Origin: a phage | Strand: one strand, 5' to 3' | Sequence record: NC_042307.1 | Length of the DNA: 64,000 nt | In this document: piece after piece, positions 9,208 through 62,052 of the stretch | Layout of the letters: the number at the start of each line of letters is the position of its first letter | Position numbering within the stretch: the first letter of the stretch is position 1 | Made by a program: the position numbers and the translations under genes | The notes under the pieces: generated by a model | What the model was told of the DNA's origin: nothing | The model's database searches: none | What the model saw: only the letters and a program-made list of their open reading frames with translations

Positions 9208-9442
9208 AAAATGGGAAACAAGGAAGTTTCCAGTAAAAGAACGTAAAGTTCCTGTTTATGATACTTCGGAGAAGCTATGTAGGGTGGTTCCTGCTAGACT
9301 AGCATCCATAAATGGCATAGGCGCATGGTTGCTAAAGCAGAGAAAGCAAAGCATATCATTACGTATATCTTTTGAGTTAGACCAAATCTATAGAGAATTG
9401 GGAGAATTGATTAAAGAAAATGATAACACAGGAAGAGGTTAG
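9191..9442 (+). CDS. hypothetical protein
   Basis: ORF track 9182..9442; likely start at ATG 9191 overlapping upstream gene end. Confidence 0.4.
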   Translation: MTVKNKKWETRKFPVKERKVPVYDTSEKLCRVVPARLASINGIGAWLLKQRKQSISLRISFELDQIYRELGELIKENDNTGRG

Positions 9443-9878
9443 AGAGGCTTTTGAGTATGATCCTGAAACAGGCCATCTTAAATGGAAGAAAACAAGACAG
9501 AAGAGTCTAGTAGGTAAGTTTGCCGGTGGTAAACATAAAGGGTATATAAGAATAGGGTTTAAGCGTAGGCACTGGGGAGAACATCAGCTGGTATTCTTAT
9601 ATCATAAGGGGTACATACCAGAAGAGATAGACCACAAAAACAGGATTAAAGATTGCAACTTTATAGAGAATTTAGAAGACTCCAATAGATCTAAGCAAAT
9701 GCACAATATTAATGTACGTAAAGACAATAAGTTGGGTGAGCCTAATATCTACATGAGGGGCGATAAATATTGTGTGCTAATGCAGAAAGGATCTATTCGT
9801 AAGTACCAGCAGTGCAATACTATAGAAGAGGCTAAAAAAGTTAGGGCTAATTTTAAGTCCGAACTCTATCCAAATTAA
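9420..9878 (+). CDS. HNH homing endonuclease
   Basis: MITQEEVREAFEYDPETGHLKWKK N-terminus and HNH core LVFLYHKGYIPEEIDHKN. Confidence 0.75.
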   Translation: MITQEEVREAFEYDPETGHLKWKKTRQKSLVGKFAGGKHKGYIRIGFKRRHWGEHQLVFLYHKGYIPEEIDHKNRIKDCNFIENLEDSNRSKQMHNINVRKDNKLGEPNIYMRGDKYCVLMQKGSIRKYQQCNTIEEAKKVRANFKSELYPN

Positions 9879-9879
9879 A

Positions 9880-9925
9880 AATTTATTTGCTTTCAGGAAA
9901 AATTTTCTGTATAATAGATTCATAA
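9880..9925 (+). promoter_or_regulatory. strong T5 early promoter (PN25-like)
   Basis: aaatttatttgctttcaggaaaaattttctgtataatagattcataaatttgagagaggag; -35 ttgctt 9887-9892, 17-bp spacer, -10 tataat 9910-9915; matches my recollection of the T5 PN25 promoter. Confidence 0.8.
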
Positions 9926-9946
9926 ATTTGAGAGAGGAGTTTAAAT

Positions 9947-10651
9947 ATGGCTGGTTCTCGCAGAAAGAAACATATCCATGAAATCCCGGATGAAGTCTTT
10001 AAAAAAGTTATAGAGCATCTGGAAAACGGTGGTACTAAGAAAGCAGCATGCGAAATGCTCGGCGTATCATCCAACCCAACTATGGAAAGGATGATAGAAG
10101 AGTGGCAAGACCGTCAGATCCAAGTTGCCGAGATGAAGAAAAAGAAACGTGGTACACTCATTGAAGGTATTGAGTTGGCCAACGTTATTGAACAGTATCT
10201 ATCTGGTGATTCTTTTGAAGAGATTGCCGATCGTAATTACCGCTCCGTAGCAATGGTTAAATCTGTTCTGGAACGCTATGGTGCTCTGCTTCGTTTGAAT
10301 GATATTGTAGATCCATTGAATCCACCAATTATTCCTGATGATGCTGTGGCAGAAGAATTTGAGGTTGGAGAACTAGTTTGGGTTCCTGGATACCAGTGTA
10401 TCGGTGAAATCAAAAAAGCAATGGATAATCCTGTTGGTTGTTACCGTGTCTGGCTTCTATCAGAAGGCAAACAACAGAACGTTCATTATATGAATTACGA
10501 GCTGGCTTCTGTTAAACATCTGGAAAAGTTAGGGGTTGACGTAAAATCCCTGGGGTACAAGTGGACTCGTGAAGAAGTTATTACGTTGATTAACGAAGCT
10601 GTTAAGGCTGCCTTGAAACTTGATAAAGAAAAAGGAAAACGCCGTGAGTAG
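9947..10651 (+). CDS. putative HTH DNA-binding protein
   Basis: 234 aa directly downstream of PN25-like promoter; helix-turn-helix-like segment TKKAACEMLGVSSNPTMERM. Confidence 0.6.
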   Translation: MAGSRRKKHIHEIPDEVFKKVIEHLENGGTKKAACEMLGVSSNPTMERMIEEWQDRQIQVAEMKKKKRGTLIEGIELANVIEQYLSGDSFEEIADRNYRSVAMVKSVLERYGALLRLNDIVDPLNPPIIPDDAVAEEFEVGELVWVPGYQCIGEIKKAMDNPVGCYRVWLLSEGKQQNVHYMNYELASVKHLEKLGVDVKSLGYKWTREEVITLINEAVKAALKLDKEKGKRRE

Positions 10652-10895
10652 ACTAACTGATTTACTTAAAGATGGGGAAGTAAAAACACTATATCGTAGA
10701 AGCTGGGATAACGATAATAACGGCTTAGTGTTACTAACTTTAGATGCTGACTCGGATGTAGCTACTCAGCATACCTGGGTAGCCGGTAACTATCCATATA
10801 GCGAGGTTGTTTCATTAACAGTATGCGAAGCTATTGCAGATGATTGGGAGGTTGCCAGCATCGAGGATATGCTCGCTGTTGGCCTGGTGGAGTAA
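10644..10895 (+). CDS. hypothetical protein
   Basis: ORF track 10620..10895; probable GTG start at 10644 preceded by AAAGGAAAA. Confidence 0.45.
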   Translation: MSRLTDLLKDGEVKTLYRRSWDNDNNGLVLLTLDADSDVATQHTWVAGNYPYSEVVSLTVCEAIADDWEVASIEDMLAVGLVE

Positions 10896-10904
10896 CTACT
10901 TAAA

Positions 10905-10950
10905 AATTTCAGTTGCTTAATCCTACAATTCTTGATATAATATTCTCATA
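10905..10950 (+). promoter_or_regulatory. T5 early-type promoter
   Basis: ttgctt 10913-10918, 17-bp spacer, tataat 10936-10941. Confidence 0.6.
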
Positions 10951-10998
10951 GTTTGAAAGAACTATTCTGTTTAATTCTTAATTAAGGAAATATAAAAT

Positions 10999-11409
10999 AT
11001 GACTACTCCAACTCAGTGGACTGATGAACTGTTCGAAAAAATGTCTTCCGAATACGTTGCTCGTATGGAGCAATTCCCAGAGGATGAACGTCCGGGTGTT
11101 AGCATGGAAATTGTTAGCGAAATTGCCCAGGAAAATGGTGTAACTCCGAACGGTTTTCGTATGAAGCTGACTAAAGCAGGTTTGTATATTAAGAAAGCTG
11201 CTGGTTCTACTTCTAAATCTAGCGCATCTACTGGAGAAAAAGCTTCCGGTGGTTCTCGTACCTCCAAAGCTCAAGCCCATGCCGACCTTCGCGCAGCATT
11301 CTCTGACGCTGGCTTAGCACCAGATTTTATGGATGATGCAATTATCGACAAACTGACTGGTAAAGCGGCCGCTCATCTGGCAGAAGCAATTCGAGCTATC
11401 ACTAAGTAA
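10999..11409 (+). CDS. small highly expressed protein with HeH/Rho_N-like DNA-binding motif
   Basis: 136 aa; host-optimal codons (cgt, ctg, ggt, gct); motif EIVSEIAQENGVTPNGFRMKLTKAGL resembles repeats in 14136..14903. Confidence 0.65.
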   Translation: MTTPTQWTDELFEKMSSEYVARMEQFPEDERPGVSMEIVSEIAQENGVTPNGFRMKLTKAGLYIKKAAGSTSKSSASTGEKASGGSRTSKAQAHADLRAAFSDAGLAPDFMDDAIIDKLTGKAAAHLAEAIRAITK

Positions 11410-11445
11410 TTTTAGATAAATCCACCAACAAAAGGAACTACAGTT

Positions 11446-11601
11446 ATGACCAAAGCTGAAATTATCGCACAATGTGAAAAATTTGGTGAGTTTTATCTTC
11501 ATTACGAGAAACTTCGTCAGAAAGGAACCACGTACCTTCAGGGTACGATGGAATTTGATCCAGCTCAGGATAAATACCTGGCTGAGCGTATTAAACAGTG
11601 A
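11446..11601 (+). CDS. small protein (51 aa), possibly 5' part of a frame-interrupted gene
   Basis: ATG 11446 preceded by AAAAGGAAC; coding-like codon usage; ends ...AERIKQ-TGA; coding-like sequence continues in +1 frame to 11743. Confidence 0.4.
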   Translation: MTKAEIIAQCEKFGEFYLHYEKLRQKGTTYLQGTMEFDPAQDKYLAERIKQ

Positions 11602-11602
11602 A

Positions 11603-11743
11603 CGTATTCGTAAAGCGAAAGATGATGAAATCCTTGTCTTCTCTCGTACTAATGATAGCTTCCGTTTTATTCCTGTCGAGAAAGTTCGTCGTGTGACTAG
11701 CCTCCAATCAGAGTTAGATCGTGCTTCTCCAGTAGGCCGATAA
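11603..11743 (+). other. coding-like segment in +1 frame relative to 11446..11601 (ERIRKAKDDEILVFSRTNDSFRFIPVEKVRRVTSLQSELDRASPVGR), no start codon
   Basis: Strong codon bias, open frame lacking ATG/RBS, immediately after the TGA of the upstream small ORF. Confidence 0.35.
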
Positions 11744-11753
11744 GAAAACAATT

Positions 11754-11776
11754 AGCCCCTATATGGGGCTTTTTGT
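11754..11776 (+). terminator. rho-independent terminator
   Basis: agcccc-tatat-ggggct followed by ttttt. Confidence 0.6.
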
Positions 11777-11793
11777 GTATTTGGGATGTGTAA

Positions 11794-12102
11794 ATGAGCG
11801 AACAGGTAAATCAAAACTATGAAGGACACGTTGATGACCAGTCCATCATACTTTGGGAGAAGGAGGGGGAACAAGTAAGATTAACAGTATCTGAATTTCG
11901 TGGGAATCTATACATGGGTATTCGTTACTGGCTTCTTGATATTAATGATGAATGGTTTCCAACGAAATCTGGCTTCTCTTTTCCTTACACCCTAGAAACA
12001 ACATCACAGCTTTTCTATGCGTTTACACAGATTCTTAGCGAATCTGAGGTTTTACATGAAGTACAGAAACGAGCTGAAGAACTAAAAGCCAAGAATGCCT
12101 AG
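11794..12102 (+). CDS. hypothetical protein
   Basis: 102-aa ORF; stop lies in loop of downstream terminator. Confidence 0.6.
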   Translation: MSEQVNQNYEGHVDDQSIILWEKEGEQVRLTVSEFRGNLYMGIRYWLLDINDEWFPTKSGFSFPYTLETTSQLFYAFTQILSESEVLHEVQKRAEELKAKNA

Positions 12103-12116
12103 TTCTTGGCTTTTTC
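12088..12116 (+). terminator. rho-independent terminator
   Basis: gccaagaa-tgcctag-ttcttggc followed by ttttt. Confidence 0.6.
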
Positions 12117-12124
12117 TTTATAAA

Positions 12125-12170
12125 TGTATTTGCTTTCAACTCAGTTTTGTTATATAATATTTATATAAAT
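12125..12170 (+). promoter_or_regulatory. T5 early-type promoter
   Basis: ttgctt 12130-12135, 17-bp spacer, tataat 12153-12158, then taaattaatgagag. Confidence 0.6.
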
Positions 12171-12189
12171 TAATGAGAGATATAAATAA

Positions 12190-13161
12190 ATGACTAATGT
12201 AAAAGAATTTATTAAACGCTGTCAAGAAGCATATTATCAAGGCATGTCTTTAATCTCAGATGAAGAATATGATCGCCTGGTAAAACGCTTCCCGTTAGAG
12301 GAAGAGATCGGGCCTAAGGGTGATATTCCACATCTATATCGTATGTATTCTTTACAGAAAGTTTACTATAACCGCGGTGATAAACCACCATTCAATCCGT
12401 TAGGTCAAGTAGAAACTGATAAGTTAGATGGTTGTGCAATTTCTCTGCTATATATTAATGGCGAATTTGTTCAAGCACTAACTCGTGGTAATGGTATTCT
12501 GGGGAATGATGTCACAAGCAACGTAAGATTGCTGAACATTCCTAAAAAGATTTCCCAAAAAGTACCTACTCAAATCACTGGTGAAGTTCTAATTACAAAA
12601 GAAGTAGAAAATAAACGTAACTTTGCCTCTGGTGCTATTAACCTCAAAGATAGCGATGATTTCGTACAACGTATCGGGGAAGGTGGTTTAATCTTCGTTG
12701 CATATGGTATCCAGTGTTCTGCTGAATCTGTAGGTATTACAGAAGCATATTTAAAAGATATGCTTTGGCTAGAGAATGAGAACTTCTTAACAGTTGTTAA
12801 TGTGCGTTCCTTCTTTAAATGGATTCCGACGGACGGTAAAGTTGTTCGTATTAATGACAACAACAAATTCTTCCGCGAAGGCTGGACTAATAAATTTCCT
12901 CGTGGAGCATTCGCTGTTAAAGAGGATGAAGAAGGCGAGATTACAACTCTTACTAAAGTTGAATGGCAGGTAGGGGCTTCTGGTAAAGTAACTCCAGTTG
13001 GTTATTTCGAACCGGTAATTATTGATGATGCTACAATTGTTAAGGCGACTCTTAATAACGTTGATTATATTAACTCTCTCGATCTAGAGATCGGTTGCCA
13101 GATTCGAGTGATTCGTGCTGGTGGTGTAATCCCATGCATAGTAGAGCGAGTATACGATTAA
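12190..13161 (+). CDS. NAD-dependent DNA ligase, N-terminal fragment (adenylation + OB domains; 'subunit A')
   Basis: KxDG adenylation motif KLDGCAIS; 323 aa ends before the Zn-finger/HhH/BRCT region, which is encoded by the next ORF. Confidence 0.8.
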   Translation: MTNVKEFIKRCQEAYYQGMSLISDEEYDRLVKRFPLEEEIGPKGDIPHLYRMYSLQKVYYNRGDKPPFNPLGQVETDKLDGCAISLLYINGEFVQALTRGNGILGNDVTSNVRLLNIPKKISQKVPTQITGEVLITKEVENKRNFASGAINLKDSDDFVQRIGEGGLIFVAYGIQCSAESVGITEAYLKDMLWLENENFLTVVNVRSFFKWIPTDGKVVRINDNNKFFREGWTNKFPRGAFAVKEDEEGEITTLTKVEWQVGASGKVTPVGYFEPVIIDDATIVKATLNNVDYINSLDLEIGCQIRVIRAGGVIPCIVERVYD

Positions 13162-13211
13162 TACATAACCCTTTGCTACCCATCTACCATATCGGAATTA
13201 TAAAGTGGTTA

Positions 13212-13240
13212 TTGACATTTTCGCCGCTTAGGTATATACT
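13212..13240 (+). promoter_or_regulatory. consensus-like sigma70 promoter inside the ligase inter-ORF spacer
   Basis: TTGACA (13212-13217), 17-bp spacer, TATACT (13235-13240). Confidence 0.5.
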
Positions 13241-13304
13241 ATTATCATTCAGTTGAGGGATAGAAAGTTATGGCGAGGGTAAGCAAAGTTAGTTAAAATT
13301 GTAG

Positions 13305-13333
13305 TTGCTAAATGCTTAAATACTTGCTATAAT
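13305..13333 (+). promoter_or_regulatory. T5 early-type promoter upstream of ligase C-terminal ORF
   Basis: ttgcta 13305-13310, 17-bp spacer, tataat 13328-13333, then atttatataaattgataagg. Confidence 0.6.
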
Positions 13334-13363
13334 ATTTATATAAATTGATAAGGAAGAAATTTG

Positions 13364-14143
13364 ATGAAAATCGAAATTCCAACACAATGTCCCTCTTGTG
13401 GTTCTAAGCTAGATCTTGTCAACGGACAATTATTCTGTCGTAATAAGTCCAACTGTCCAGCGCAATCAAGTAAGTTAATTGAGAACTTCTGTACAAAAAT
13501 GAAGTTAAAGGGCTTTGGCCCAAAAACTATTGAGAAGCTGGAGCTGACGAAGATTTCAGAACTATTTTACCTAACCGAAGAAGATTTGGTTAGAGCCGTG
13601 GGTAGCAAGGTTGCCGCTAAGTTAATTAGCGAATTAAATACTAAAGTTCGCGGAGACATTGACTTTGGTTCAGTTCTCGGTTCTTTAGGAATCACTCTAA
13701 TTGGAGAGGTTGCAGCAAAGAAATTATCCCAAAATTGCACTAGCTTCCATGATGTGAAGGCTGACGGCAAGGCTGGAGAAAATTACAAAGCCTGGCTAAA
13801 TTCCCCACAAGGCAAGGATGTTATTGAACTACCGTGGAAATTTTCAACTGGTATTAAGGGCACTAAAGCTGACGTCATCATTACAGATGAATTAGTTGCC
13901 CAGCCAAATGGAATCGCGGTATGTATTACCGGATCTTTGCAAGATTTTGCAAATAGAACGGATGCAACAAACTATTTAGAAAGTCTAGGGTATACGGTTA
14001 AGAAATCCGTTACCAAAGACGTCAAATACCTAATCTGTGAGGATGAATCGAAGCGTTCCTCCTCATCTTATAAGAAAGCCGAAACGAATGGGATAGAAAT
14101 CCTGTCGATTAAAGAACTATTGGAGAAAAATAATAATGTCTAA
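13364..14143 (+). CDS. NAD-dependent DNA ligase, C-terminal fragment (Zn-finger, HhH, BRCT-like; 'subunit B')
   Basis: C4 Zn-finger CPSCGSKLDLVNGQLFCRNKSNCPAQ near N-terminus, then helix-hairpin-helix-like GFGPKTIEKL; ATG 13364 with AAGGAAG RBS. Confidence 0.8.
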   Translation: MKIEIPTQCPSCGSKLDLVNGQLFCRNKSNCPAQSSKLIENFCTKMKLKGFGPKTIEKLELTKISELFYLTEEDLVRAVGSKVAAKLISELNTKVRGDIDFGSVLGSLGITLIGEVAAKKLSQNCTSFHDVKADGKAGENYKAWLNSPQGKDVIELPWKFSTGIKGTKADVIITDELVAQPNGIAVCITGSLQDFANRTDATNYLESLGYTVKKSVTKDVKYLICEDESKRSSSSYKKAETNGIEILSIKELLEKNNNV

Positions 14144-14903
14144 ACTGAACTGGAACGTAGAAGGTGTAACCGAGTCTCTGAAAGCAAAAGCCACTGCTCT
14201 GGGTGTTGCTGTAATCTCTCAAGAACAAGTAGCTGCTATCGCTGCTGAACTGGCTGCTGAAACTGGCAAAGATGTTACTGCTCGCTCTGTTGGCTCTAAG
14301 CTGCGTAAAGAAGGTTTTGAAGTACAAAAAGCTAACGAAGTACAGAAATCCCCGTGGACTCCTGAGCAGGAAGCTGAACTGGTTGATTTCCTGAACGCTC
14401 ATGCTGGTCAGTATACCTATGCTGAAATCGCTGCTGCTGTAGCTGGTGGTCAGTTCGGTGCTAAACAGGTACAGGGTAAGATCCTGAGTCTGGAAATGAC
14501 CGCTTCTGTTAAACCAACTGAAAAAGCTGCTGCTGTTCGTTCCTTCACTCCGGATGAAGAAACTGATTTTGTTAATCAGGTTGTTGCTGGAGCTACTATT
14601 GAAGCTATCGCTGCTCACTTCGGTCGCAATATTAAGCAGATCCGTGGTAAAGCTCTGAGCCTGCTTCGTGAAGGTCGTATCGCCGCTATGCCGGTACAGG
14701 AAACTTCAAGTGCTAAAACTCGTGAAGATCTGTTAGAAGGTCTGGATCTGGCTAACATGACTGTTGCTGAGATCGCTGAGAAAACTGGTAAGTCTGAGCG
14801 CGGTGTTAAATCTATGCTGTCTCGTCGTGGTCTGGTTGCTAAGGACTATGATGGTGCCGCTAAGCGTGCTAAACTGGATGCAAAAGCTGCGGCTGCTGAA
14901 TAA
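14136..14903 (+). CDS. highly expressed Ala-rich protein with four tandem HeH/Rho_N-like repeats (putative DNA-binding protein)
   Basis: Four repeats of ~40 aa (e.g. IAAELAAETGKDVTARSVGSKLRKEGF; MTVAEIAEKTGKSERGVKSMLSRRGL); strongly host-optimal codon usage. Confidence 0.7.
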   Translation: MSKLNWNVEGVTESLKAKATALGVAVISQEQVAAIAAELAAETGKDVTARSVGSKLRKEGFEVQKANEVQKSPWTPEQEAELVDFLNAHAGQYTYAEIAAAVAGGQFGAKQVQGKILSLEMTASVKPTEKAAAVRSFTPDEETDFVNQVVAGATIEAIAAHFGRNIKQIRGKALSLLREGRIAAMPVQETSSAKTREDLLEGLDLANMTVAEIAEKTGKSERGVKSMLSRRGLVAKDYDGAAKRAKLDAKAAAAE

Positions 14904-14920
14904 TCTGGTAAATTAAACCT

Positions 14921-14953
14921 AAGGGGAGGGGGCTATGCTCCTTCCCCTTTTTG
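14921..14953 (+). terminator. rho-independent terminator
   Basis: aaggggagg / ccttcccctt hairpin (one G-U position) followed by ttttt. Confidence 0.55.
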
Positions 14954-14985
14954 CATTTAGAAGGCACGAAAGCGTGCAAAGGAGA

Positions 14986-16458
14986 ATGACCTTGTTTAAC
15001 GTGCAAGCTGTAGTGTTGAAGATGCTTCTAGCTTCCGAACAGAAGCAAATAGCATTGGAAACATTCTCAAAACTGCATAAAGATCATTTTAATGACGCTT
15101 TCTCCTCAATTTACCAAGCCGTCCAGAATTATTATAAAAAATATAACACAATGCCGTCCATTGACGCACTGATGCTTGAGGCTAATAGGAACGCCCGCCT
15201 TTCTCAAGCTCTAGTCGTTTTAGCTAACACTCAAATTCCAGAAGTTAGCATGGAACAGGCACTTGAAGTCCTAGAGGCCGAGTATACGCAGGATTTATTC
15301 CTGAAGCTTCTAGAAACAGACGTGCTTCAAGATTTAACAATGCTGGATCAGGGAGAAATTCTTAACCGAGTTGCCTCCCTTCACTTAAAATTAGAAGAGA
15401 AAGTAACGAATACTGGAAAAGTATTCAACGCAGATAACATGCGTATTTTCCAGAGAGAAGAAGATACCAAACTGAACTTAATCGCTCTTGGTATTTGTAA
15501 TGAGTTCGACGCTCAAATTGGTTTAGCTCGCACAGAAACGTTACTGCTTGGTGGTTGGCGTGGTACTGGTAAATCCATTATCTGTTCAAACATACAGGTT
15601 CAGCAATATTTGAATGGAGATATTGCTCCATACTTCTCAATTGAGATGAAAGAACATGAAGTATTTAGACGTAATCTAGCCATGTTAGCTGGTGTATCAG
15701 CACTAGCAATGCGTAATAATACTCTAGAAGGTGCAGCTCTGTTGAGATTAGCCAGAACTAGAGCTAGAATGTTTAACGGTGGTGAAGAGCTTTTCGATAA
15801 CTTCGTTAAACAATACACAATGGCTAAGATGAGTGATTTCTACGATATGGAAAGTAAGCTAATAGAAGGATATGAGCTACATACTCCTATGATTATTGTT
15901 TATGATCCTGAGCTGTCTATTACAACAGTTGACGTAGAATTAAATAAATTAGTTGCTAGATATGGGGATAAAGTTACAGTAGCTTTACTTGACTATATTA
16001 ACCAAACCCGACTTCCAGATTCTAAAACCATTGATATGTATGACTGGAAAGAACAGATGGTTGTTAGCTCGTCTTTCAAATCCCTCTGCCAGAAACATAA
16101 CGTGGCTGGTGTAGCTCCTTACCAGATTGATCAAGATGGTAGAACACGTATGTCAAAAGGGATTCTTGATTCCGCAGACATGGCTGCTAATCTTAATGCT
16201 GCAAAAGCTGATAATGGTCAAGGTGCTATTATGTTTGACTTCGTTAAGACCCGTTCTTCTGATAGCGTGAAGTTTATGCCTAAAATGAACTGGGAAACCC
16301 TGCGGATGGATAACACTACCAACCTAGCAATGGAAGATATATCTCAAATGGAAGCTGAGTTCGTTATCCCTATTGAGAAGGATAAGCCAGCTCAATCTAA
16401 ACGTGCTAAGAAAGACAAAGCTGAAAATTCAACAGGTGAACAGGCCAGCGATATATGA
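14986..16458 (+). CDS. replicative DNA helicase (DnaB-like P-loop ATPase)
   Basis: Walker A LLLGGWRGTGKS; start moved from track 14935 (inside terminator hairpin) to ATG 14986 preceded by AAAGGAGA. Confidence 0.6.
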   Translation: MTLFNVQAVVLKMLLASEQKQIALETFSKLHKDHFNDAFSSIYQAVQNYYKKYNTMPSIDALMLEANRNARLSQALVVLANTQIPEVSMEQALEVLEAEYTQDLFLKLLETDVLQDLTMLDQGEILNRVASLHLKLEEKVTNTGKVFNADNMRIFQREEDTKLNLIALGICNEFDAQIGLARTETLLLGGWRGTGKSIICSNIQVQQYLNGDIAPYFSIEMKEHEVFRRNLAMLAGVSALAMRNNTLEGAALLRLARTRARMFNGGEELFDNFVKQYTMAKMSDFYDMESKLIEGYELHTPMIIVYDPELSITTVDVELNKLVARYGDKVTVALLDYINQTRLPDSKTIDMYDWKEQMVVSSSFKSLCQKHNVAGVAPYQIDQDGRTRMSKGILDSADMAANLNAAKADNGQGAIMFDFVKTRSSDSVKFMPKMNWETLRMDNTTNLAMEDISQMEAEFVIPIEKDKPAQSKRAKKDKAENSTGEQASDI

Positions 16459-23038: not shown

Positions 23039-23401
23039 ATGAAATTCTTTGATTACGAGAGAATTTACCTCTTAGCTAGAGGAAACTCCGACCTGATTGT
23101 CAAGCTATTTAATAGAATGCTTGCAGAGCCTGATGCTCACCAACTACTGGTCGGTTATTCATTCATCTTGAATGAATCAACTATTGTTGATAACCCTTAC
23201 AAATTGTCTAATAGACAACTGGCAGAATATCTAGGAATTCTAAGTCTACGAAATTATGCCGAATATAAGTTTACAAACGATCCGAGTTTGGACATGCAAT
23301 ATGTTCCCATATGGATACCACGTTCTGTAATCGACACTAACCCACTAATTGCAATCAATAAATCGAAGATAATCTTTAAAGAGGAAATAAAATATGGCTA
23401 A
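23039..23401 (+). CDS. hypothetical protein
   Basis: 120-aa ORF downstream of tandem promoters. Confidence 0.55.
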   Translation: MKFFDYERIYLLARGNSDLIVKLFNRMLAEPDAHQLLVGYSFILNESTIVDNPYKLSNRQLAEYLGILSLRNYAEYKFTNDPSLDMQYVPIWIPRSVIDTNPLIAINKSKIIFKEEIKYG

Positions 23402-24167
23402 GTCTTGGGGCGAAACTACTGGCGGTTCTAACGATAAAATCGACTTCCTGAAATTCAACAACGGTGTAACTCGCGTTCGTATCGTTTCTGGTGTTCTTCC
23501 ACGTTATGTCTACTGGCTGACTAACAAAGATGGTAATGCAGCTCCATTTGAGTGCCTGCGTTTCAACCGTACTAAAGAGAGCTTCGTTCGCGGTAAAGCT
23601 GACCCGATTCACGAAATGGGCTTCTTCGAAAAAGAGCTGGACAAAGATGGTAATCGTGTTCCGCTGAAACCGAAGAAAAACTACATTGCTTTCGTTATCG
23701 ACCGTTCCGATAACAAACTGAAAGTTATGGAAGTTAAAGCTACTATCCTGAAAGGCATCCAGTCTATCATGAAGCAGCTTGAACTGGCAGATCCATTCGA
23801 TATCGATATTTCTATCGAGAAGAAAGGTAAAGGCTTCGATACTGAGTACGATGTACAGCAGATCGCAGCAATGCAGTTCCAGATGAAACTAAAAGATCCT
23901 ACCAGTGCTGAGTCTAAACTGCACGCCGCTGATGTTGATATCCTCGGTGAAGCTATGTGTGATGATACTGGTGAGTTCATCAAGTTCGAAAAGGTTCCTT
24001 CTCTGGAAGAAACCTACCCGGTTCCGTCCTACGAAGAGCAGAAAGAAGCTATTCTCGCCTTCATGGAAGGTCGTGAGAAGCAAGACGGCGGTGACGCTAA
24101 GTCTGGTGGAGATGCTGGTTCTCAGAAAGGCATCGACGCTGAAGCTGCTAGCGATCTGGACGACTAA
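23394..24167 (+). CDS. highly expressed protein with acidic C-terminal tail (putative ssDNA-binding / replication accessory protein)
   Basis: 257 aa; host-optimal codon usage; C-terminus GDAGSQKGIDAEAASDLDD resembles SSB acidic tails; function inferred. Confidence 0.45.
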   Translation: MAKSWGETTGGSNDKIDFLKFNNGVTRVRIVSGVLPRYVYWLTNKDGNAAPFECLRFNRTKESFVRGKADPIHEMGFFEKELDKDGNRVPLKPKKNYIAFVIDRSDNKLKVMEVKATILKGIQSIMKQLELADPFDIDISIEKKGKGFDTEYDVQQIAAMQFQMKLKDPTSAESKLHAADVDILGEAMCDDTGEFIKFEKVPSLEETYPVPSYEEQKEAILAFMEGREKQDGGDAKSGGDAGSQKGIDAEAASDLDD

Positions 24168-29962: not shown

Positions 29963-30292
29963 CTATTGGGTAATAGCGTTCAGGTTCATTGCGCCTGTGT
30001 TAGCGATTGCCAGATTGGTTGCACCCTGACCCTGTACAACAGTTAGGCCCAGATTGTTCAGTCCGCTCTGAATGGATTCGATATCGCTTACCAGTGAAGT
30101 AGTCAGCATGTTTGCAGCAGTACCAGCAACGGAAACCGCGCCATCCACACCACCAACGCCAACACCACGACCACCCACACCATTACCTAACCAGGAATCA
30201 ATCAGCGCACCACTAAAAGCAGCGATACCAGGCATAGCACCGTCACCACCGAGACCGCCCATGTTGGTCGGTAAAAGAGTCCTGTCAGACAT
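29963..30292 (-). CDS. Gly-rich hypothetical protein ending at an in-frame TAG (amber) codon
   Basis: ATG at 30290-30292 with AGGAG RBS 8 nt upstream; MSDRTLLPTNMGGLGGDGAMPG...NLNAITQ then TAG at 29963-29965. Confidence 0.55.
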   Translation of the reverse strand: MSDRTLLPTNMGGLGGDGAMPGIAAFSGALIDSWLGNGVGGRGVGVGGVDGAVSVAGTAANMLTTSLVSDIESIQSGLNNLGLTVVQGQGATNLAIANTGAMNLNAITQ

Positions 30293-30412
30293 AGTAAACA
30301 CTCCTGAGAGTTGATTGTTAAACACATGTAACACGCACATTACGAGTTAAGCATAGTGCATAACAAAAAGTTTACCTGGCATCTGATGTAAAGTTTTGTA
30401 AAGTTAAAAGTG

Positions 30413-30444
30413 ATAAAAATACGCAGCCGAAGCCGCGTATTTTA
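30413..30444 (-). terminator. bidirectional-looking rho-independent terminator downstream of tail fiber gene
   Basis: Near-perfect 12-bp stem aaaauacgcagc/gccgcguauuuu with cgaa tetraloop, flanked by A-run and T-run. Confidence 0.6.
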
Positions 30445-30447
30445 GGA

Positions 30448-32715
30448 TTAAGGAAGGTCTTGATTTGGAGCGGGGTCTTCAGGTAGAGTGGTTGGTTTAT
30501 CTTCTAACAAAGACTCTAACTTACTGACACGGGCGCTTAGCACCTGGATAGCAGCAAGCGCATCCAGTAACAGCACGTTAGTATCAAGCGAAAGAATTGT
30601 ATTTCCCTCCTTGTCCTCGCTTGAGTGTGTGTATTCAGGGTCTATGGTTGCCGCTTGCTGTGCAATGATTCCACGACGTACCCGACGCTTTATATCATCT
30701 TTGAAGATAAACGTCACGAGCTCTAACTGATTGATGTTGTTTAACGCACTCTTACCGTCCCATGGCTCAACCTGTTCTTTATAATCAATGTCGCTTGTAG
30801 GATCCAGCGTTACTCGCCCAATACGAGTACTATCAATCCATACATCGACTCCCGGATTTTCCCACGAGAAAGAATAGCTATTTGCTTGGAAATTACCACC
30901 AATACCTCTACGGCAAATGACACCTGCCGAGGGTAAGAGAGTTGTTAAGCGAGTAGCATCGTAGGTATCTAAAACAGATCGTGCAGTTCCATCGTAAAAA
31001 TCTACACGAGCGGCGTACTGTGTCACCTGCCCCGCCCCATAACTCAACTCCATGTTACCGGACGCCTCTCCTGGCGCACCTGTGTTACGACTAATAATCA
31101 GGCTTCTAATATTAGACATTTCGCCAAAGTCGCTAAAAAGATACTCCCAGCTTTCACCGGACACTCGAGTAGGCTTAATGCAGGCATATGTGACGCTTCC
31201 TACTGTGTGGTTTACGTAAAAATCAGCAGTCGCCGTTCCGATACCATAGCCTTCTACAATTGATCGCCACGACCAACCCAAAATTTGACCTGTTGAGCCA
31301 GCAGGATAATAATGTTTAGTAGCAATCATGGCGGTCGCAGTGTCACCACCTTTGGACAGCGCCCCGATGTTGTTGCGAGCACCCTCTGCGTCCCAAGCTC
31401 CAGTGCCGCCCTGTCCTACTCCTAAAGGTTTAAATACATTACTAGTATCGTCATAGACACCCCAAGACCCTGTATCCATTACAACTAAGTTGTAGCGGTT
31501 TGTCGGGTCATAAATGCGGGAACTATCAGCGCTCTGTTTAAGACGATCCACACTTAGGTTTATACGAGCCTGTACCTTGTCACTTAAGTCTGCAAGGTTC
31601 TGATCCTTTAACAAAGATATGCTCAAAGTTTGTTCAGCTTTGTTTGCTGCGGTCTCAGCTCGAGTTGCGGAACTGGATGCTGCTACGGCTTGTTCTCCTG
31701 CGGTTGTAGCGCTTCCAGCCGCGGCTGTAGCCTGTTCTGTAGCCGTTACTGCCTTTTGTCCAGCTAAGGTGGCAGCGTCTTCCGCAGCTTGTTTTAACGG
31801 GGTGATTTCAGCAATTGCGTTTGCCTTAGCTGTGTCAATTGCTCCTACTGCGTCCGTCTTAGCTGCTCCAATCTCTGTCGCCGCACCTTCTTTAATGGTC
31901 TGAGTGTCCGCTTTAAGCTGTTCAACATCGGACTTAAGACCCTGTATTGTGGTCATAGCTTGCGTAGCTATGTTCGCGCTATCTGATGCACCTTGCTGAG
32001 CTAGCTTAGCAGCGTCTTCACTAGCTTTTGAGTTAATTTCGCTAGTCTTTGTATTAGTTTCTGAGTTTTTTGCTGCTAATGCTGATGTGGAGGCTTGTGC
32101 AGCGAATGCTTCTGCTTCATCCCTGAATCCTTTGGAGTCAGAAGCAGAGGCAGCGGAATCAGCAGCATTAGTCTCGCTAGTTTTTGCTGCTGCTGCATAT
32201 GCTGCTGCATTAGTCTCGCTAGTTTTTGCGTTAGTCTCACTAGTTTTTGCATTAGTCTCACTAGTTTTTGCTGCAGCTGATGATTCTAGAGCGTTAGTTT
32301 CACTAGTTTTTGCTGCAGCTGATGATTCTGCAGCTTTAGTAGCGGACGCAGCAGATTGAGAAGCAGAAATAGCAGAGGCATCGGCACTATCTTTAGATAA
32401 ACCAGCTTGTCTCTCCGCTTCAGTAGCAGAAGTAGCAGATTGAGTTGCAGAAGCTTCTGAAGAGTTAGCATAATTTGCAGATAGGTTCTCAGAGTCCTTA
32501 GCATTTATTTCAGATTCTTTTGCTGCAATTTCAGAATCTTTTGCAGCCGCAGCAGACTTAGCTGCTGCCTCAATAGAAGATACTAACTCACTTGCAGTAA
32601 TAGAGCTAATAGAATTACCTAGAGTTACTGTATATCTAGGAAACTTACTAGCAGTAGCTTTAGTATCGTCAATATTTAATATCTGTTGTACAATAATTTT
32701 AGTAGTTACTGACAT
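30448..32715 (-). CDS. L-shaped tail fibre protein with C-terminal intramolecular chaperone (peptidase S74-like) domain
   Basis: 755 aa; Ala/Ser/Thr-rich N-terminal repeats (AKTSETNA); C-terminal SDIDYKEQVEP...RGIIAQQAATIDPEYT...KLESLLEDK matches the auto-cleaving chaperone domain of endosialidases and T5 pb1. Confidence 0.8.
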   Translation of the reverse strand: MSVTTKIIVQQILNIDDTKATASKFPRYTVTLGNSISSITASELVSSIEAAAKSAAAAKDSEIAAKESEINAKDSENLSANYANSSEASATQSATSATEAERQAGLSKDSADASAISASQSAASATKAAESSAAAKTSETNALESSAAAKTSETNAKTSETNAKTSETNAAAYAAAAKTSETNAADSAASASDSKGFRDEAEAFAAQASTSALAAKNSETNTKTSEINSKASEDAAKLAQQGASDSANIATQAMTTIQGLKSDVEQLKADTQTIKEGAATEIGAAKTDAVGAIDTAKANAIAEITPLKQAAEDAATLAGQKAVTATEQATAAAGSATTAGEQAVAASSSATRAETAANKAEQTLSISLLKDQNLADLSDKVQARINLSVDRLKQSADSSRIYDPTNRYNLVVMDTGSWGVYDDTSNVFKPLGVGQGGTGAWDAEGARNNIGALSKGGDTATAMIATKHYYPAGSTGQILGWSWRSIVEGYGIGTATADFYVNHTVGSVTYACIKPTRVSGESWEYLFSDFGEMSNIRSLIISRNTGAPGEASGNMELSYGAGQVTQYAARVDFYDGTARSVLDTYDATRLTTLLPSAGVICRRGIGGNFQANSYSFSWENPGVDVWIDSTRIGRVTLDPTSDIDYKEQVEPWDGKSALNNINQLELVTFIFKDDIKRRVRRGIIAQQAATIDPEYTHSSEDKEGNTILSLDTNVLLLDALAAIQVLSARVSKLESLLEDKPTTLPEDPAPNQDLP
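32160..32330. repeat. imperfect tandem repeats of a ~24-nt unit (gcattagtctcgctagtttttgc) inside the tail fibre gene
   Basis: At least five copies visible between 32160 and 32330; encode AKTSETNA-type repeats on the minus strand. Confidence 0.7.
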
Positions 32716-47529: not shown

Positions 47530-48906
47530 TTAAGCGGTAGCGTAAGCACCGGATACAACACCATTACTAAAGTAACGTTGCAGGTTAACACGCTGAGTAA
47601 CGTAGTATGCATCACGCTGTTTACCAGCTTGGCGCTCACGTTCAACAGTAACAGCACGCTGACGTGGCATTACGAAGTTATCTTTATAAACAATAACTGC
47701 GAACTCTTTCTCAGCTGCTTTAGCTGGGAAGTACTCAGAAACCACAACCGGCAGACCATAAATACGACCAACCTGACCTTGCAGTTTAACAGCATCGTTA
47801 CCAACCTGTGCAACATCCTGCCATTCTTCATCTTCCAGAAGATCATAGTAAGCATCCATAGATACGATAAGTACCAGTTTGCTCAGTTTCAGACCATGAC
47901 GGCCCAGTTTACGACGCAGTTTAGAGATAGTTTTAGCAGTTACCAGAACAGAACCATCAGCTTTAGCTTCAGTAGTAACTTTAGCACCATCATCTTCAGC
48001 CAGTTTCAACAGACCTTTCGGCTTACCAGTACCATCACCAGTCATAAAAGCTTCTTCGATAGAAACAGCGTGTGCTTCAATCAGACGCTTACGCAGCAGC
48101 GGCAGCAGGGAGAAGATTGCATCTTCTTCAGTTTCATCAGTAATGAAGGACTTAGCAGCCAGTTTGTAAGTACTGAAGTGAATTTCTTTAAGAGCACCTT
48201 TAACTTCATCACCGGTAGTAGTATCAGTACCATAAGTAGAAGCAGCAACCCAAGTAGCTTTACCAGCATCCGGTTCAACCAGCATAGTAAGAATCTTACT
48301 GGACATCGGCAGTTCTTCAAACAGTGCGCCAACTACCAGCTCTTTCTGCAGGTCACGGATAATACGCTGAGAGAAAATAGTTTCATAGCTTTCACTAGAA
48401 ACTTCTACAGAAGAAGACTGATTCACTGCTTTCAGGTGTTTTTGACCGTGTTCGGTTTCGAATACACCTTTTTCCATTACGTAAGACAACAGAACCAGTT
48501 TTTCTACTTCGTCTTCAAAGTTTTCCTGAGTACCATACAGTGCTTTAGCAACACTATCACCAACGAAGGAACGACCTTCACGAGCTGTTAGCAGAGATTT
48601 AATTTCGTCCTGAAGACCAACAATAGTTTCCTGTTGTTTTTCTACAGTTTGTGCAAACAGTTCTGCGCTCTTCTTAGATTTCTCATCCAGAGACTTAACC
48701 AAATCCAGAGCCTCTTCCAGACGCTTACGGTCTTCACCAACAGCTTTAGAAACTAGGTCATTCATACGAGCCAGTTCTTTTTCTTCCTGCTCTTTACGCA
48801 TACGTTCAGCTTCCTGAGCTTTCTGAGCAGCGGTCAGACCTTCCAGAGATTTAGCCAGATCACCCAGACCAAGTTCTTCTTTCAGCTTATTAATATCAAT
48901 AGTCAT
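47530..48906 (-). CDS. major capsid protein precursor with N-terminal scaffold-like delta domain (T5 pb8-like)
   Basis: 458 aa; N-terminal ~150 aa coiled-coil (EELGLGDLAKSLEGLTAAQKAQEAERMRKEQEEKELARM); strong RBS; upstream of protease gene. Confidence 0.8.
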   Translation of the reverse strand: MTIDINKLKEELGLGDLAKSLEGLTAAQKAQEAERMRKEQEEKELARMNDLVSKAVGEDRKRLEEALDLVKSLDEKSKKSAELFAQTVEKQQETIVGLQDEIKSLLTAREGRSFVGDSVAKALYGTQENFEDEVEKLVLLSYVMEKGVFETEHGQKHLKAVNQSSSVEVSSESYETIFSQRIIRDLQKELVVGALFEELPMSSKILTMLVEPDAGKATWVAASTYGTDTTTGDEVKGALKEIHFSTYKLAAKSFITDETEEDAIFSLLPLLRKRLIEAHAVSIEEAFMTGDGTGKPKGLLKLAEDDGAKVTTEAKADGSVLVTAKTISKLRRKLGRHGLKLSKLVLIVSMDAYYDLLEDEEWQDVAQVGNDAVKLQGQVGRIYGLPVVVSEYFPAKAAEKEFAVIVYKDNFVMPRQRAVTVERERQAGKQRDAYYVTQRVNLQRYFSNGVVSGAYATA

Positions 48907-61635: not shown

Positions 61636-62052
61636 TTATTCACCTGCGGCTTGTTTTACTTCATCGGCAACGCCTAACAGTTGCGCCACGGCGTCCAGCG
61701 TTTCCAATTTTGCACTTTCCAGTGATGCCAAATCGTCGGCGTCTTTGATAATGCCTGAATCGATGGCATGTTTTGCAATAACACGCACATAATGCGCTTT
61801 ACGGATGGAACTACCGCCGCCAACTTTACGCGGTTTATCACTTTTCTGGTACGCTTTTGCGCTTGTCAGTTTAGAACGTACAGAAACAGGGCTTGCAGCG
61901 CCAACGGCGGCGGCAATTTCTTTCAGGCCGTCACTGTTAGCAAATTCAATTCCGCTTTTAGCGACCATTTCAGAATACATAGAAACAGCCTTTTCGGTGT
62001 TTTCTTCGTTCCAAGAGAATTTTGCGGTTTTTTCGGTTTTAACGTTAGACAT
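61636..62052 (-). CDS. hypothetical pre-early-module protein
   Basis: 138-aa ORF, GC-richer codon usage; upstream AT-rich intergenic region. Confidence 0.55.
   Translation of the reverse strand: MSNVKTEKTAKFSWNEENTEKAVSMYSEMVAKSGIEFANSDGLKEIAAAVGAASPVSVRSKLTSAKAYQKSDKPRKVGGGSSIRKAHYVRVIAKHAIDSGIIKDADDLASLESAKLETLDAVAQLLGVADEVKQAAGE

Follow-up and report, generated by a model that had tools for sequence, protein, structure and literature searches.

D5 and D3, two early genes of a T5-like phage, encode proteins built from tri-helical HTH units and are probably highly expressed

Two open reading frames in this phage DNA (sequence record NC_042307.1; the whole analysed stretch of 64,000 nucleotides is called the window) raise the question of which genes they are, what DNA-binding module their products are built from, and whether these products are abundant. 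Both frames singled out by the original prediction, 10999..11409 and 14136..14903, are present. The best explanation, which we consider very probable, is that they are the T5 early genes D3 and D5, built from HTH units and expressed at high output, and that D5 coats phage DNA. We computed gene identity, unit architecture, fold class, codon bias and the promoter and terminator context, and took DNA binding, phenotypes and retron triggering from the literature and from annotations.

The region 10900-15000 shows 97.8% DNA identity to T5, with the same gene order. The ORF 14136-14903 encodes a protein identical to T5 D5 at 253 of 255 amino acids, and the product of the ORF 10999-11409 is identical to its T5 counterpart, T5.113 (phrog_1725), at 135/136. 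D5 has the same length as the T5 product (T5.118, YP_006946; phrog_323), the same ligB and D6 helicase flanks and the same upstream promoters, and differs by two substitutions, A25 (D in T5) and A206 (V in T5). The order ligB-D5-D6 replicative helicase in the early region matches that of annotated T5 and BF23 gene for gene. The original prediction likened the location of the ORF to that of the T5 D5 protein; the ORF turns out to be D5, with its ligB and D6 neighbours. Among PHROG families, phrog_323 (“D5-like transcriptional regulator”) matches D5 residues 1-253 (E 1.9e-71) and phrog_1725 (“DNA binding protein”) matches D3 (E 1.2e-49, profile positions 1-127 of 129). The NCBIfam profile search gave no match for D5, D3, A2 or D2, and Pfam PF26822.1 is among the precomputed matches of some relatives of D5 and some of D3. 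The features of the two loci are:

10893..10967, + strand: early promoter P-N 26, immediately preceding D3 (-35 TTGCTT, 17-nt spacer, -10 TATAAT; 75/75 identical to the T5 NC_005859 annotation)
10999..11409, + strand: D3, 136 aa
11011-11178, + strand: N-terminal three-helix HTH unit of D3, residues ~5-60
Between this unit and the C-terminal domain, + strand: D3 linker, disordered and Ser/Gly/Lys-rich
11254-11406, + strand: conserved C-terminal helical domain of D3, residues ~86-136
11754..11774, + strand: Rho-independent terminator (hairpin and T-run by scan; 20/20 identical to the T5 annotation)
13192-13266, + strand: early promoter P-K 28b (TTGACA-17-TATACT; 75/75 identical to the T5 annotation)
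13285-13359, + strand: early promoter P-K 28a (TTGCTA-17-TATAAT with TG; 75/75 identical to the T5 annotation)
13364..14143, + strand: ligB, NAD-dependent DNA ligase, C-terminal subunit (T5 annotation; Pfam BRCT and HhH)
14136..14903, + strand: D5, 255 aa, 27 kDa, four tandem HTH units
14921..14949, + strand: strong terminator-like hairpin (13-bp stem with 8 G-C pairs and a T-run, by scan)

The terminator at 11754..11774 closes the unit formed by P-N 26, D3 and T5.114, the next gene after D3. The tandem promoters P-K 28b and P-K 28a, with 11/12 and 10/12 matches in the consensus scan, drive ligB and D5. The last 8 nt of ligB overlap the start of D5, which makes D5 the second gene of its unit, and the downstream hairpin starts 18 nt past the D5 stop codon.

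The presence of four related units in D5 is confirmed. They lie as follows:

14145-14315, + strand: unit 1, residues ~4-60
14349-14495, + strand: unit 2, residues ~72-120
14538-14675, + strand: unit 3, residues ~135-180
14721-14840, + strand: unit 4, residues ~196-235
After unit 4: C-terminal helix, residues 240-254

We compared the units profile to profile (hhalign) on segments cut from an alignment of 26 sequences. Units 2 and 3 matched with 96% probability (E 3e-9), followed by the pairs 1-4 (66%), 3-4 (65%) and 1-3 (61%); in the same comparison the pairs 1-2 and 2-4 showed no similarity significant on its own. The AlphaFold2 model (mean pLDDT 90) has three helices in each of units 1-3, and a short first helix followed by two full ones in unit 4, which lacks the N-terminal aromatic residue. 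The high pLDDT together with a pTM of 0.43 fits confident domains whose relative orientation is uncertain. The units start near W6, W74, F137 and R196, giving a period of 61-68 aa made up of a core of ~45 aa and linkers. The four tandem repeats of the original prediction were thus recovered by sensitive self-comparison and in the model, whereas its contiguous ~40-aa period was not. BLASTP of D5 against itself returned the identity alignment alone, and the DNA-level repeat search of D5 found none with the unit period; GCTGCTG-type DNA matches within the gene are due to codon bias. The 44 third-helix positions hold 15 of the 25 invariant residues of D5 (p 3.5e-7), so that most invariant residues lie in the predicted third (recognition) helix of each unit.

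The units of D5 and D3 are HTH domains of the Myb/SANT/GcrA-DBD type, i.e., small three-helix domains, joined in D5 by flexible linkers. DSSP on the predicted models shows a three-helix bundle, a helix 2-turn-helix 3 arrangement and a conserved third helix. The modelled D5 units superpose on solved tri-helical HTH structures (Myb/SANT/GcrA-DBD-like), the closest match being the DNA-binding domain of GcrA (Caulobacter crescentus, PDB 5YIU). In Pfam, Sigma70_r4_2 matches D5 residues 204-230 with 29.1 bits (cut-off 25.7) and is matched by 22 of the 26 family members; HTH_23 is matched by 16/26 and Myb by 9/26. Against PDB sequences, the profile of units 2 and 3 found proteins with Myb repeats, SNAPC4 at E 1.2e-5 and c-Myb at E 3.4e-4, and the GcrA chain only at E 0.27.

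D5 falls outside the strict limits of each of these families. Its score for Pfam Myb (PF00249) is 17.6 bits, below the cut-off of 24.4. True Myb repeats have three regularly spaced tryptophans. Compared with the Myb/SANT arrays of c-Myb (R1R2R3) and SNAPC4, D5 has only a single aromatic residue in each unit (W6, W74, F137) and longer linkers. The GcrA family (PF07750) has no match to the D5 or D3 of the window at E <= 0.01 and is weakly matched by three of the 26 relatives. GcrA has a single such domain and a sigma-70-interacting domain, whereas D5 has four units and no detected sigma-interacting domain. Nor is D5 a sigma factor: Sigma70_r2, responsible for core binding and -10 recognition, has no Pfam match in D5 or its 26 relatives, and the match to sigma region 4 arises because the HTH is common to both.

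The original prediction had also placed one similar module in the ORF 10999..11409, and this proved correct: D3 residues 1-71 match D5 unit 1 with 87.6% probability in hhalign (E 3.5e-6) and unit 4 with 87%. D3 most likely binds duplex DNA through this predicted HTH unit. The module extends to a pre-early gene at the other end of the window:

61636..62052, - strand: A2, pre-early gene, 138 aa (annotation in T5-like records)

A2 falls with D3 into one PHROG family (phrog_1725, E 5.8e-51, positions 1-128 of 129), and its residues 9-63 match D5 unit 1 with 95% probability in hhalign (E 3.6e-8). A2 and D3 align with only 18% probability by hhalign and only ~28% identity by BLASTP (E 0.016). Judged by sequence, D3 is a paralogue of A2, with the N-terminal HTH unit in common. 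A2 is pre-early, essential and needed in second-step DNA transfer, whereas D3 has no role on record, and we found no function for it in the literature searched. Judging from its sequence, the N-terminal part of the D2 helicase may carry the same module. The N-terminus of A1 has been published as GcrA-like by structure; it showed no sequence similarity to the D5 and D3 profiles (probability <1%), and we did not count A1 among the tested members.

To assess codon usage, we computed the codon adaptation index (CAI) with weights derived from 31 genes of the E. coli K-12 translation apparatus (28 for ribosomal proteins, plus rpoA, tufA and fusA) and ranked the 72 heuristically called genes of the window. 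D5 came first (0.771, against a window median of 0.33), D3 fourth (0.632) and A2 fifth (0.588); the other high-CAI genes are those of the major head protein (0.741) and SSB (0.728), which are expected to be abundant. D5 uses CTG for 17 of 19 Leu, GCT for 40 of 46 Ala, GGT for 16 of 19 Gly and CGT for 9 of 12 Arg. When synonymous codons were redrawn at the frequencies found elsewhere in the window, the observed bias stood at z = 13.5 for D5 and z = 5.9 for D3. The bias of D3 is weaker, with GCT in just 8 of 21 Ala codons and most single-amino-acid tests not significant. In virion preparations of phiR2-01 the D5 homologue was among the most abundant proteins, and D5 was not found among the T5 virion proteins (PMC8624392). 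No proteome of T5-infected cells and no paper on promoter strength turned up in the literature search. The step from codon usage to high expression is well supported, and D5 and D3 are probably made in large amounts. The host-optimal codons proposed initially are borne out by the CAI ranks and the resampling, strongly for D5, and the very high expression proposed with them is supported by these results, the promoters and the phiR2-01 homologue.

The published record on D5 fits the initial guess of an abundant DNA-binding or transcription-switch protein. The note on D5 in the T5 record describes the protein as DNA-binding, needed for DNA replication and late transcription, and involved in the shutoff of expression; PMC12630848 cites McCorquodale et al. 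1979 for this role. A preprint (10.64898/2026.07.11.737809) reports that D5 has an HTH fold, binds the msDNA of retron-Kva2 and triggers this retron, whose escape mutants were altered in D5, D3 and D2. We propose that each D5 unit would sit in one DNA major groove, such that a single molecule could span several successive grooves; we infer this groove-by-groove coating geometry from fold and architecture only. Many D5 molecules would then coat duplex phage DNA and alter the state of the template, which would shut off early transcription and permit replication and late transcription, as in the D5 note of the T5 record. The high output of D5 and D3 would be achieved by early promoters, codons of the translation-apparatus type and terminator-like hairpins closing the units. 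D5 is nearly neutral (pI 6.8, 34 K+R and 34 D+E), with unit 4 alone basic, unlike what is expected of a purely electrostatic coat.

Other readings were weighed against this one. The original prediction saw in the repeats a resemblance to helix-extension-helix (HeH) modules of the SAP/Rho_N type. In modules of this class, to which LEM also belongs, two helices joined by an extended loop bind the DNA backbone. Such modules are likewise small, helical, nucleic-acid-binding and similar in size to the D5 units, and short helical Ala/Lys-rich units of ~40 aa can give this impression by eye. Yet they consist of two helices and an extended connector, whereas the models show three helices in units 1-3 with a tight turn and the classic helix 2-turn-helix 3 spacing, and the two-helix topology is absent from the D5 and D3 models. 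Pfam gave no SAP, Rho_N, HeH or LEM match for D5 or D3 at E <= 1, nor across the 26 family members at E <= 0.01, the search filters discarding most matches above E ~0.1; the families matched are instead Sigma70_r4_2, HTH_23 and Myb, and the D5 profile finds Myb proteins. With neither sequence nor structure matching, and Pfam, model and profile contradicting it, we regard an HeH fold as highly improbable. We give just as little credence to the idea that the codon bias arose from something other than expression level: a protein rich in Ala, Gly and Leu, the base composition of the region, or a gene recently taken up from the host. D5 does contain 18% alanine, and local G+C is slightly raised (0.41-0.42 vs ~0.38). 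However, when codons were resampled with the protein held fixed, the CAI averaged 0.40 and never exceeded 0.52 over 5000 trials, compared with the observed 0.77, which contradicts a compositional origin. The GC3 of D5 (0.31) is not above that of most other top-ranked genes listed, the favoured codons are T-ending ones and CTG rather than G+C-rich ones, and the major head protein and SSB genes share the high CAI. As to host acquisition, most of the homologues matched carry no source name; those that do come from phages or metagenomes, apart from two incomplete sequences, 99% identical, that are recorded under Enterococcus faecalis.

A further alternative concerns function: D5 might act chiefly as a transcription factor of the GcrA or sigma type rather than as a coat, working stoichiometrically with host sigma-70 RNA polymerase at specific late promoters, with HTH units that read specific sequences or a unit 4 that mimics sigma region 4. 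Unit 4 scores above the Sigma70_r4_2 cut-off, the nearest structure is that of the DNA-binding domain of GcrA, which is a cofactor of sigma-70 (PMC4647560), late transcription needs D5 according to the T5 record note, and a 2020 study (PMC7472727) stated that the mechanism switching the T5 temporal classes was unknown. Still, the codon optimisation of D5 exceeds that of the major head protein, which points to a far larger amount of D5 than of RNA polymerase; Pfam detected no sigma region 2-like or GcrA sigma-interacting region; and the terms “gpD5”, “gene D5” and “D5 gene” are absent from one T5 RNA polymerase-binding study. We therefore consider this alternative unlikely, although D5 could play both roles. 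A broader version, to which we assign a similarly low probability, would have one GcrA/Myb-like HTH module spread over two temporal classes, the pre-early protein A2 and the early proteins D3 and D5 (with four copies in D5), possibly also D2 and A1, with D5 as more than a coat, namely a host sigma-70 cofactor marking replicated phage DNA for late transcription. If true, D5 as a GcrA-like cofactor would be the early-to-late switch that T5 has been lacking, and the convergence of unrelated retrons (Ec67 via A1, Kva2 via D5) on sensing the HTH module would be explained.

With D5 as a probable coat protein, probably abundant and built of HTH units, the finding is real but ordinary: it rediscovers known T5 genes and reveals no new protein. 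That T5 makes this DNA-binding protein, and that replication, the shut-off of early transcription and late transcription need it, has been on record since the 1970s, and a 2026 preprint has already reported both its HTH fold and its ability to trigger a retron. What remains is a cleaner description: four GcrA/Myb-like HTH units in a row make up D5, whose codons are the most optimised of any gene in the 64-kb stretch, ahead of those for the major head protein, and D3 and A2 are paralogues that carry one HTH unit each. This description could guide work on the early-to-late transcription switch of T5.

The stretch 10900-15000 of the window matched Escherichia phage T5 with 97.8% identity and 100% coverage (megablast against phage records), and it matched hundreds of further T5-like phages. 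The T5 reference has the order P-N 26, D3, T5.114, terminator, T5.115 (PC4-like), promoter, ligA, P-K 28b and P-K 28a, ligB, D5, D6 helicase, and BF23 shares this order. Given the T5 match and the common gene order, the two ORFs are T5 genes: 14136-14903 is D5 itself and 10999-11409 is D3. The original prediction, that the T5 D5 protein sits in a comparable position, understated the relation. The D5 product has 2 substitutions in 255 positions relative to its T5 counterpart, and the D3 product 1 in 136. In PHROGs, D5 falls into phrog_323 ("transcriptional regulator, D5-like", E 1.9e-71) and D3 into phrog_1725 ("DNA binding protein", E 1.2e-49).

Four features of the surrounding region were recorded:
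9420-9941, + strand: region 5' of promoter P-N 25, sequence unlike T5, holding a 152-aa ORF
10620-10895, + strand: T5.112 homologue (91 aa), weak Pfam match to the Thoeris anti-defence Tad2-like domain (E 0.0099, below cut-off)
11446-11743, + strand: T5.114 homologue, 1-nt insertion at ~11597 relative to T5 and BF23
11794-12102, + strand: T5.115 homologue, PC4 (transcriptional coactivator p15, ssDNA-binding) domain, 32.1 bits vs a Pfam cut-off of 25
The annotated P-N 25 promoter region is 67/75 identical to T5 overall, with a diverging 5' end; the 152-aa ORF resembles an HNH homing endonuclease by eye, which suggests an endonuclease insertion other than that of T5. PHROGs classes the T5.112 homologue as a transcriptional regulator. 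The frame of the T5.114 homologue is broken into a 51-aa ORF and an out-of-frame remainder; the gene is a pseudogene in this phage, or the sequencing is in error. The T5.115 homologue adds a second small protein that binds nucleic acid to the interval from D3 to the ligase. Elsewhere, 30001-32000 is a local G+C peak (0.477 vs about 0.38), where the sign change in GC skew corresponds to the flip of gene orientation from the + to the - strand.

We scored the codon adaptation index (CAI) of 72 heuristically called window genes. The weights came from 31 genes of the E. coli K-12 translation apparatus in the annotated MG1655 record, namely 28 for ribosomal proteins plus rpoA, tufA and fusA; spot-checked reference genes had CAIs of 0.55-0.84 themselves. 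D5 had the highest CAI of all (0.771), followed by the window's other strongly codon-optimised genes:
47530-48906, - strand: major head protein gene, CAI 0.741
23394-24167, + strand: SSB gene, CAI 0.728
D3 (0.632) and A2 (0.588, rank 5) came next, and the median was 0.33. The DNA polymerase (0.531) and major tail protein (0.454) genes were less codon-optimised. In D5, leucine was encoded by CTG in 17 of 19 cases (vs 16% elsewhere in the window, p 4e-12), alanine by GCT in 40 of 46 (p 1e-7), glycine by GGT in 16 of 19 and arginine by CGT in 9 of 12; AGA, AGG, CTA and GGG codons were absent. When the protein sequence was kept and codons were redrawn from window usage (5000 trials), D5 reached a CAI of 0.40 +/- 0.03 (maximum 0.52). 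The observed value was 13.5 sd higher, and that of D3 exceeded its redrawn-codon expectation by 5.9 sd, bearing out the predicted host-optimal codons. With a GC3 of 0.31 in D5, G+C content does not account for the bias.

At E <= 0.001 we found 726 relatives of D5; the most distant are about 50% identical, and the set includes Vibrio phage and marine metagenome sequences. An alignment of 26 relatives was cut into four segments (units U1-U4), which were compared profile against profile. U2 and U3 matched with 96% probability (E 3e-9), U1-U4 with 66%, U3-U4 with 65% and U1-U3 with 61%, while U1-U2 and U2-U4 showed no significant similarity by themselves. The AlphaFold2 model built on the same alignment had a mean pLDDT of 90 and a pTM of 0.43, which fits confidently predicted domains whose mutual orientation is not fixed. 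It placed these elements in D5:
residues 11-22, 29-43 and 49-58: helices of unit 1
residues 76-88, 95-101 and 109-118: helices of unit 2
residues 139-150, 155-162 and 166-178: helices of unit 3
residues 205-207, 210-217 and 221-231: short turn, then two helices, of unit 4
residues 240-254: C-terminal helix, after unit 4
The profile matches and the model together establish that the four related units are real. Their period is 61-68 residues and their cores about 45 residues, so that the predicted "four tandem ~40-aa repeats" stand in number and kinship but not in contiguous 40-residue spacing. At the DNA level D5 has no repeat with the unit period, only GCTGCTG-like matches that its codon bias produces, so the duplication is an old one. 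A profile search gave 490 cluster representatives at 50% identity (E <= 0.001), of which about 55 retain the four-unit form (233-262 aa). In at least one relative (P0172, 309 aa), a second copy resembling U2 adds a fifth unit. Unit count varies among the relatives (e.g., also P0305, P0309 and P0317), and in proteins of 515-692 aa the HTH repeats of the W-T-x-E-E type that match the D5 profile number six to eight or more.

The likening of these units to HeH, SAP or Rho_N modules failed every test run. Neither D5 nor D3 matched SAP, Rho_N, HeH or LEM in Pfam, even at E <= 1, and the modelled units have three helices each, vs two for HeH. Residues 204-230 of D5 matched Sigma70_r4_2 (29.1 bits vs a cut-off of 25.7), with HTH_23, Sigma70_r4 and Myb_DNA-binding listed beside it; among the 26 relatives, Pfam matched Sigma70_r4_2 in 22, HTH_23 in 16, Myb in 9 and GcrA in 3. 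D5 has this region 4-type match of the sigma-70 family but lacks region 2, and is therefore not a sigma factor. Whole-chain Foldseek with the D5 model gave nothing significant in the PDB. When units 2 and 3 of all D5 relatives were combined into one profile and searched against PDB sequences, the matches included the Myb-repeat proteins SNAPC4 (1.2e-5), c-Myb (3.4e-4) and MYB21 (7.6e-4). The units are not strict Myb repeats, because their Pfam score is under the cut-off and each has one aromatic residue, whereas Myb repeats have three spaced tryptophans. The third helices of the four units (44 positions) hold 15 of the 25 invariant family residues (hypergeometric p 3.5e-7), the pattern that would be expected of recognition helices.

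The unit recurs outside D5. With a family alignment of 18 sequences, D3 residues 1-71 matched D5 unit 1 (hhalign 87.6%, E 3.5e-6) and the alignment matched unit 4 (87%); D3 was therefore correctly credited with one similar module. Two further genes are concerned:
61636-62052, - strand: pre-early gene A2, N-terminal motif as in D5 and D3, spotted during codon-usage ranking
9947-10651, + strand: D2 (published as bipolar helicase), residues 16-113 align to D5 units 3-4
A2 shares phrog_1725 with D3 over its full length and matched D5 unit 1 (hhalign 95% probability); it carries the HTH unit of D5 and D3. The D2 alignment is weaker (hhalign 70%, E 4e-5; BLASTP E 3.8e-5), and D2 may therefore begin with two HTH units of the D5 kind. 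No sequence similarity to the D5 and D3 profiles was seen in the N-terminus of A1, which has been published as structurally GcrA-like.

Independent support for D5 abundance comes from phiR2-01, a T5-like phage of Yersinia: its D5 homologue was one of the proteins with the highest spectral counts in virion preparations, although the virion proteins of T5 did not include D5 (PMC8624392). D3 follows the annotated P-N 26 promoter region at a distance of 32 nt, and ligB-D5 lies downstream of P-K 28b and P-K 28a. Each is 75/75 identical to the T5 annotation, and two of the three were near-consensus in a promoter scan. We take them to belong to the very strong T5 promoter set characterised by Bujard's laboratory. 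Scanning also placed terminator-like hairpins at the ends of both transcription units:
11754-11774, + strand: end of the D3 unit
14921-14949, + strand: end of the D5 unit
Within 14921-14990 (+ strand), the ATG of the D6 helicase ORF at 14935, onto which the annotated D6 start of T5 maps, falls inside the loop of the strong post-D5 terminator hairpin. The in-frame ATG at 14986, adjoining GGAG, may be the real D6 start.

gpD5 is produced in large amounts and, when purified, shows cooperative binding to duplex DNA. The note on D5 in the T5 record describes it as DNA-binding, needed for DNA replication and late transcription, and with a part in expression shutoff; PMC12630848 cites McCorquodale et al. 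1979 for this role. An earlier genome paper already named the D5 homologue as an HTH protein. In a 2026 preprint (10.64898/2026.07.11.737809), D5 is the natural trigger of retron-Kva2, its "helix-turn-helix fold" binds msDNA, D5 alone is mildly toxic, and escape mutations fall in D5, D3 and D2. Our best reading is that D5 coats phage duplex DNA groove by groove, in a geometry that we infer: each unit would occupy one major groove, many copies of the flexible four-unit chain would cover the DNA, and the coat would change its template state. D5 is close to neutral overall (pI 6.8), unit 4 being its one basic unit, which argues against a simple electrostatic coat. As a minority alternative, D5 could be a GcrA-like cofactor of sigma-70 RNA polymerase; in its favour, how T5 switches between its temporal classes was still called unknown in 2020 (PMC7472727). 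The earlier observation is partly confirmed: it holds for the repeats, the common module and the codon bias, but not for the HeH resemblance. Its functional interpretation essentially rediscovers T5 D5.
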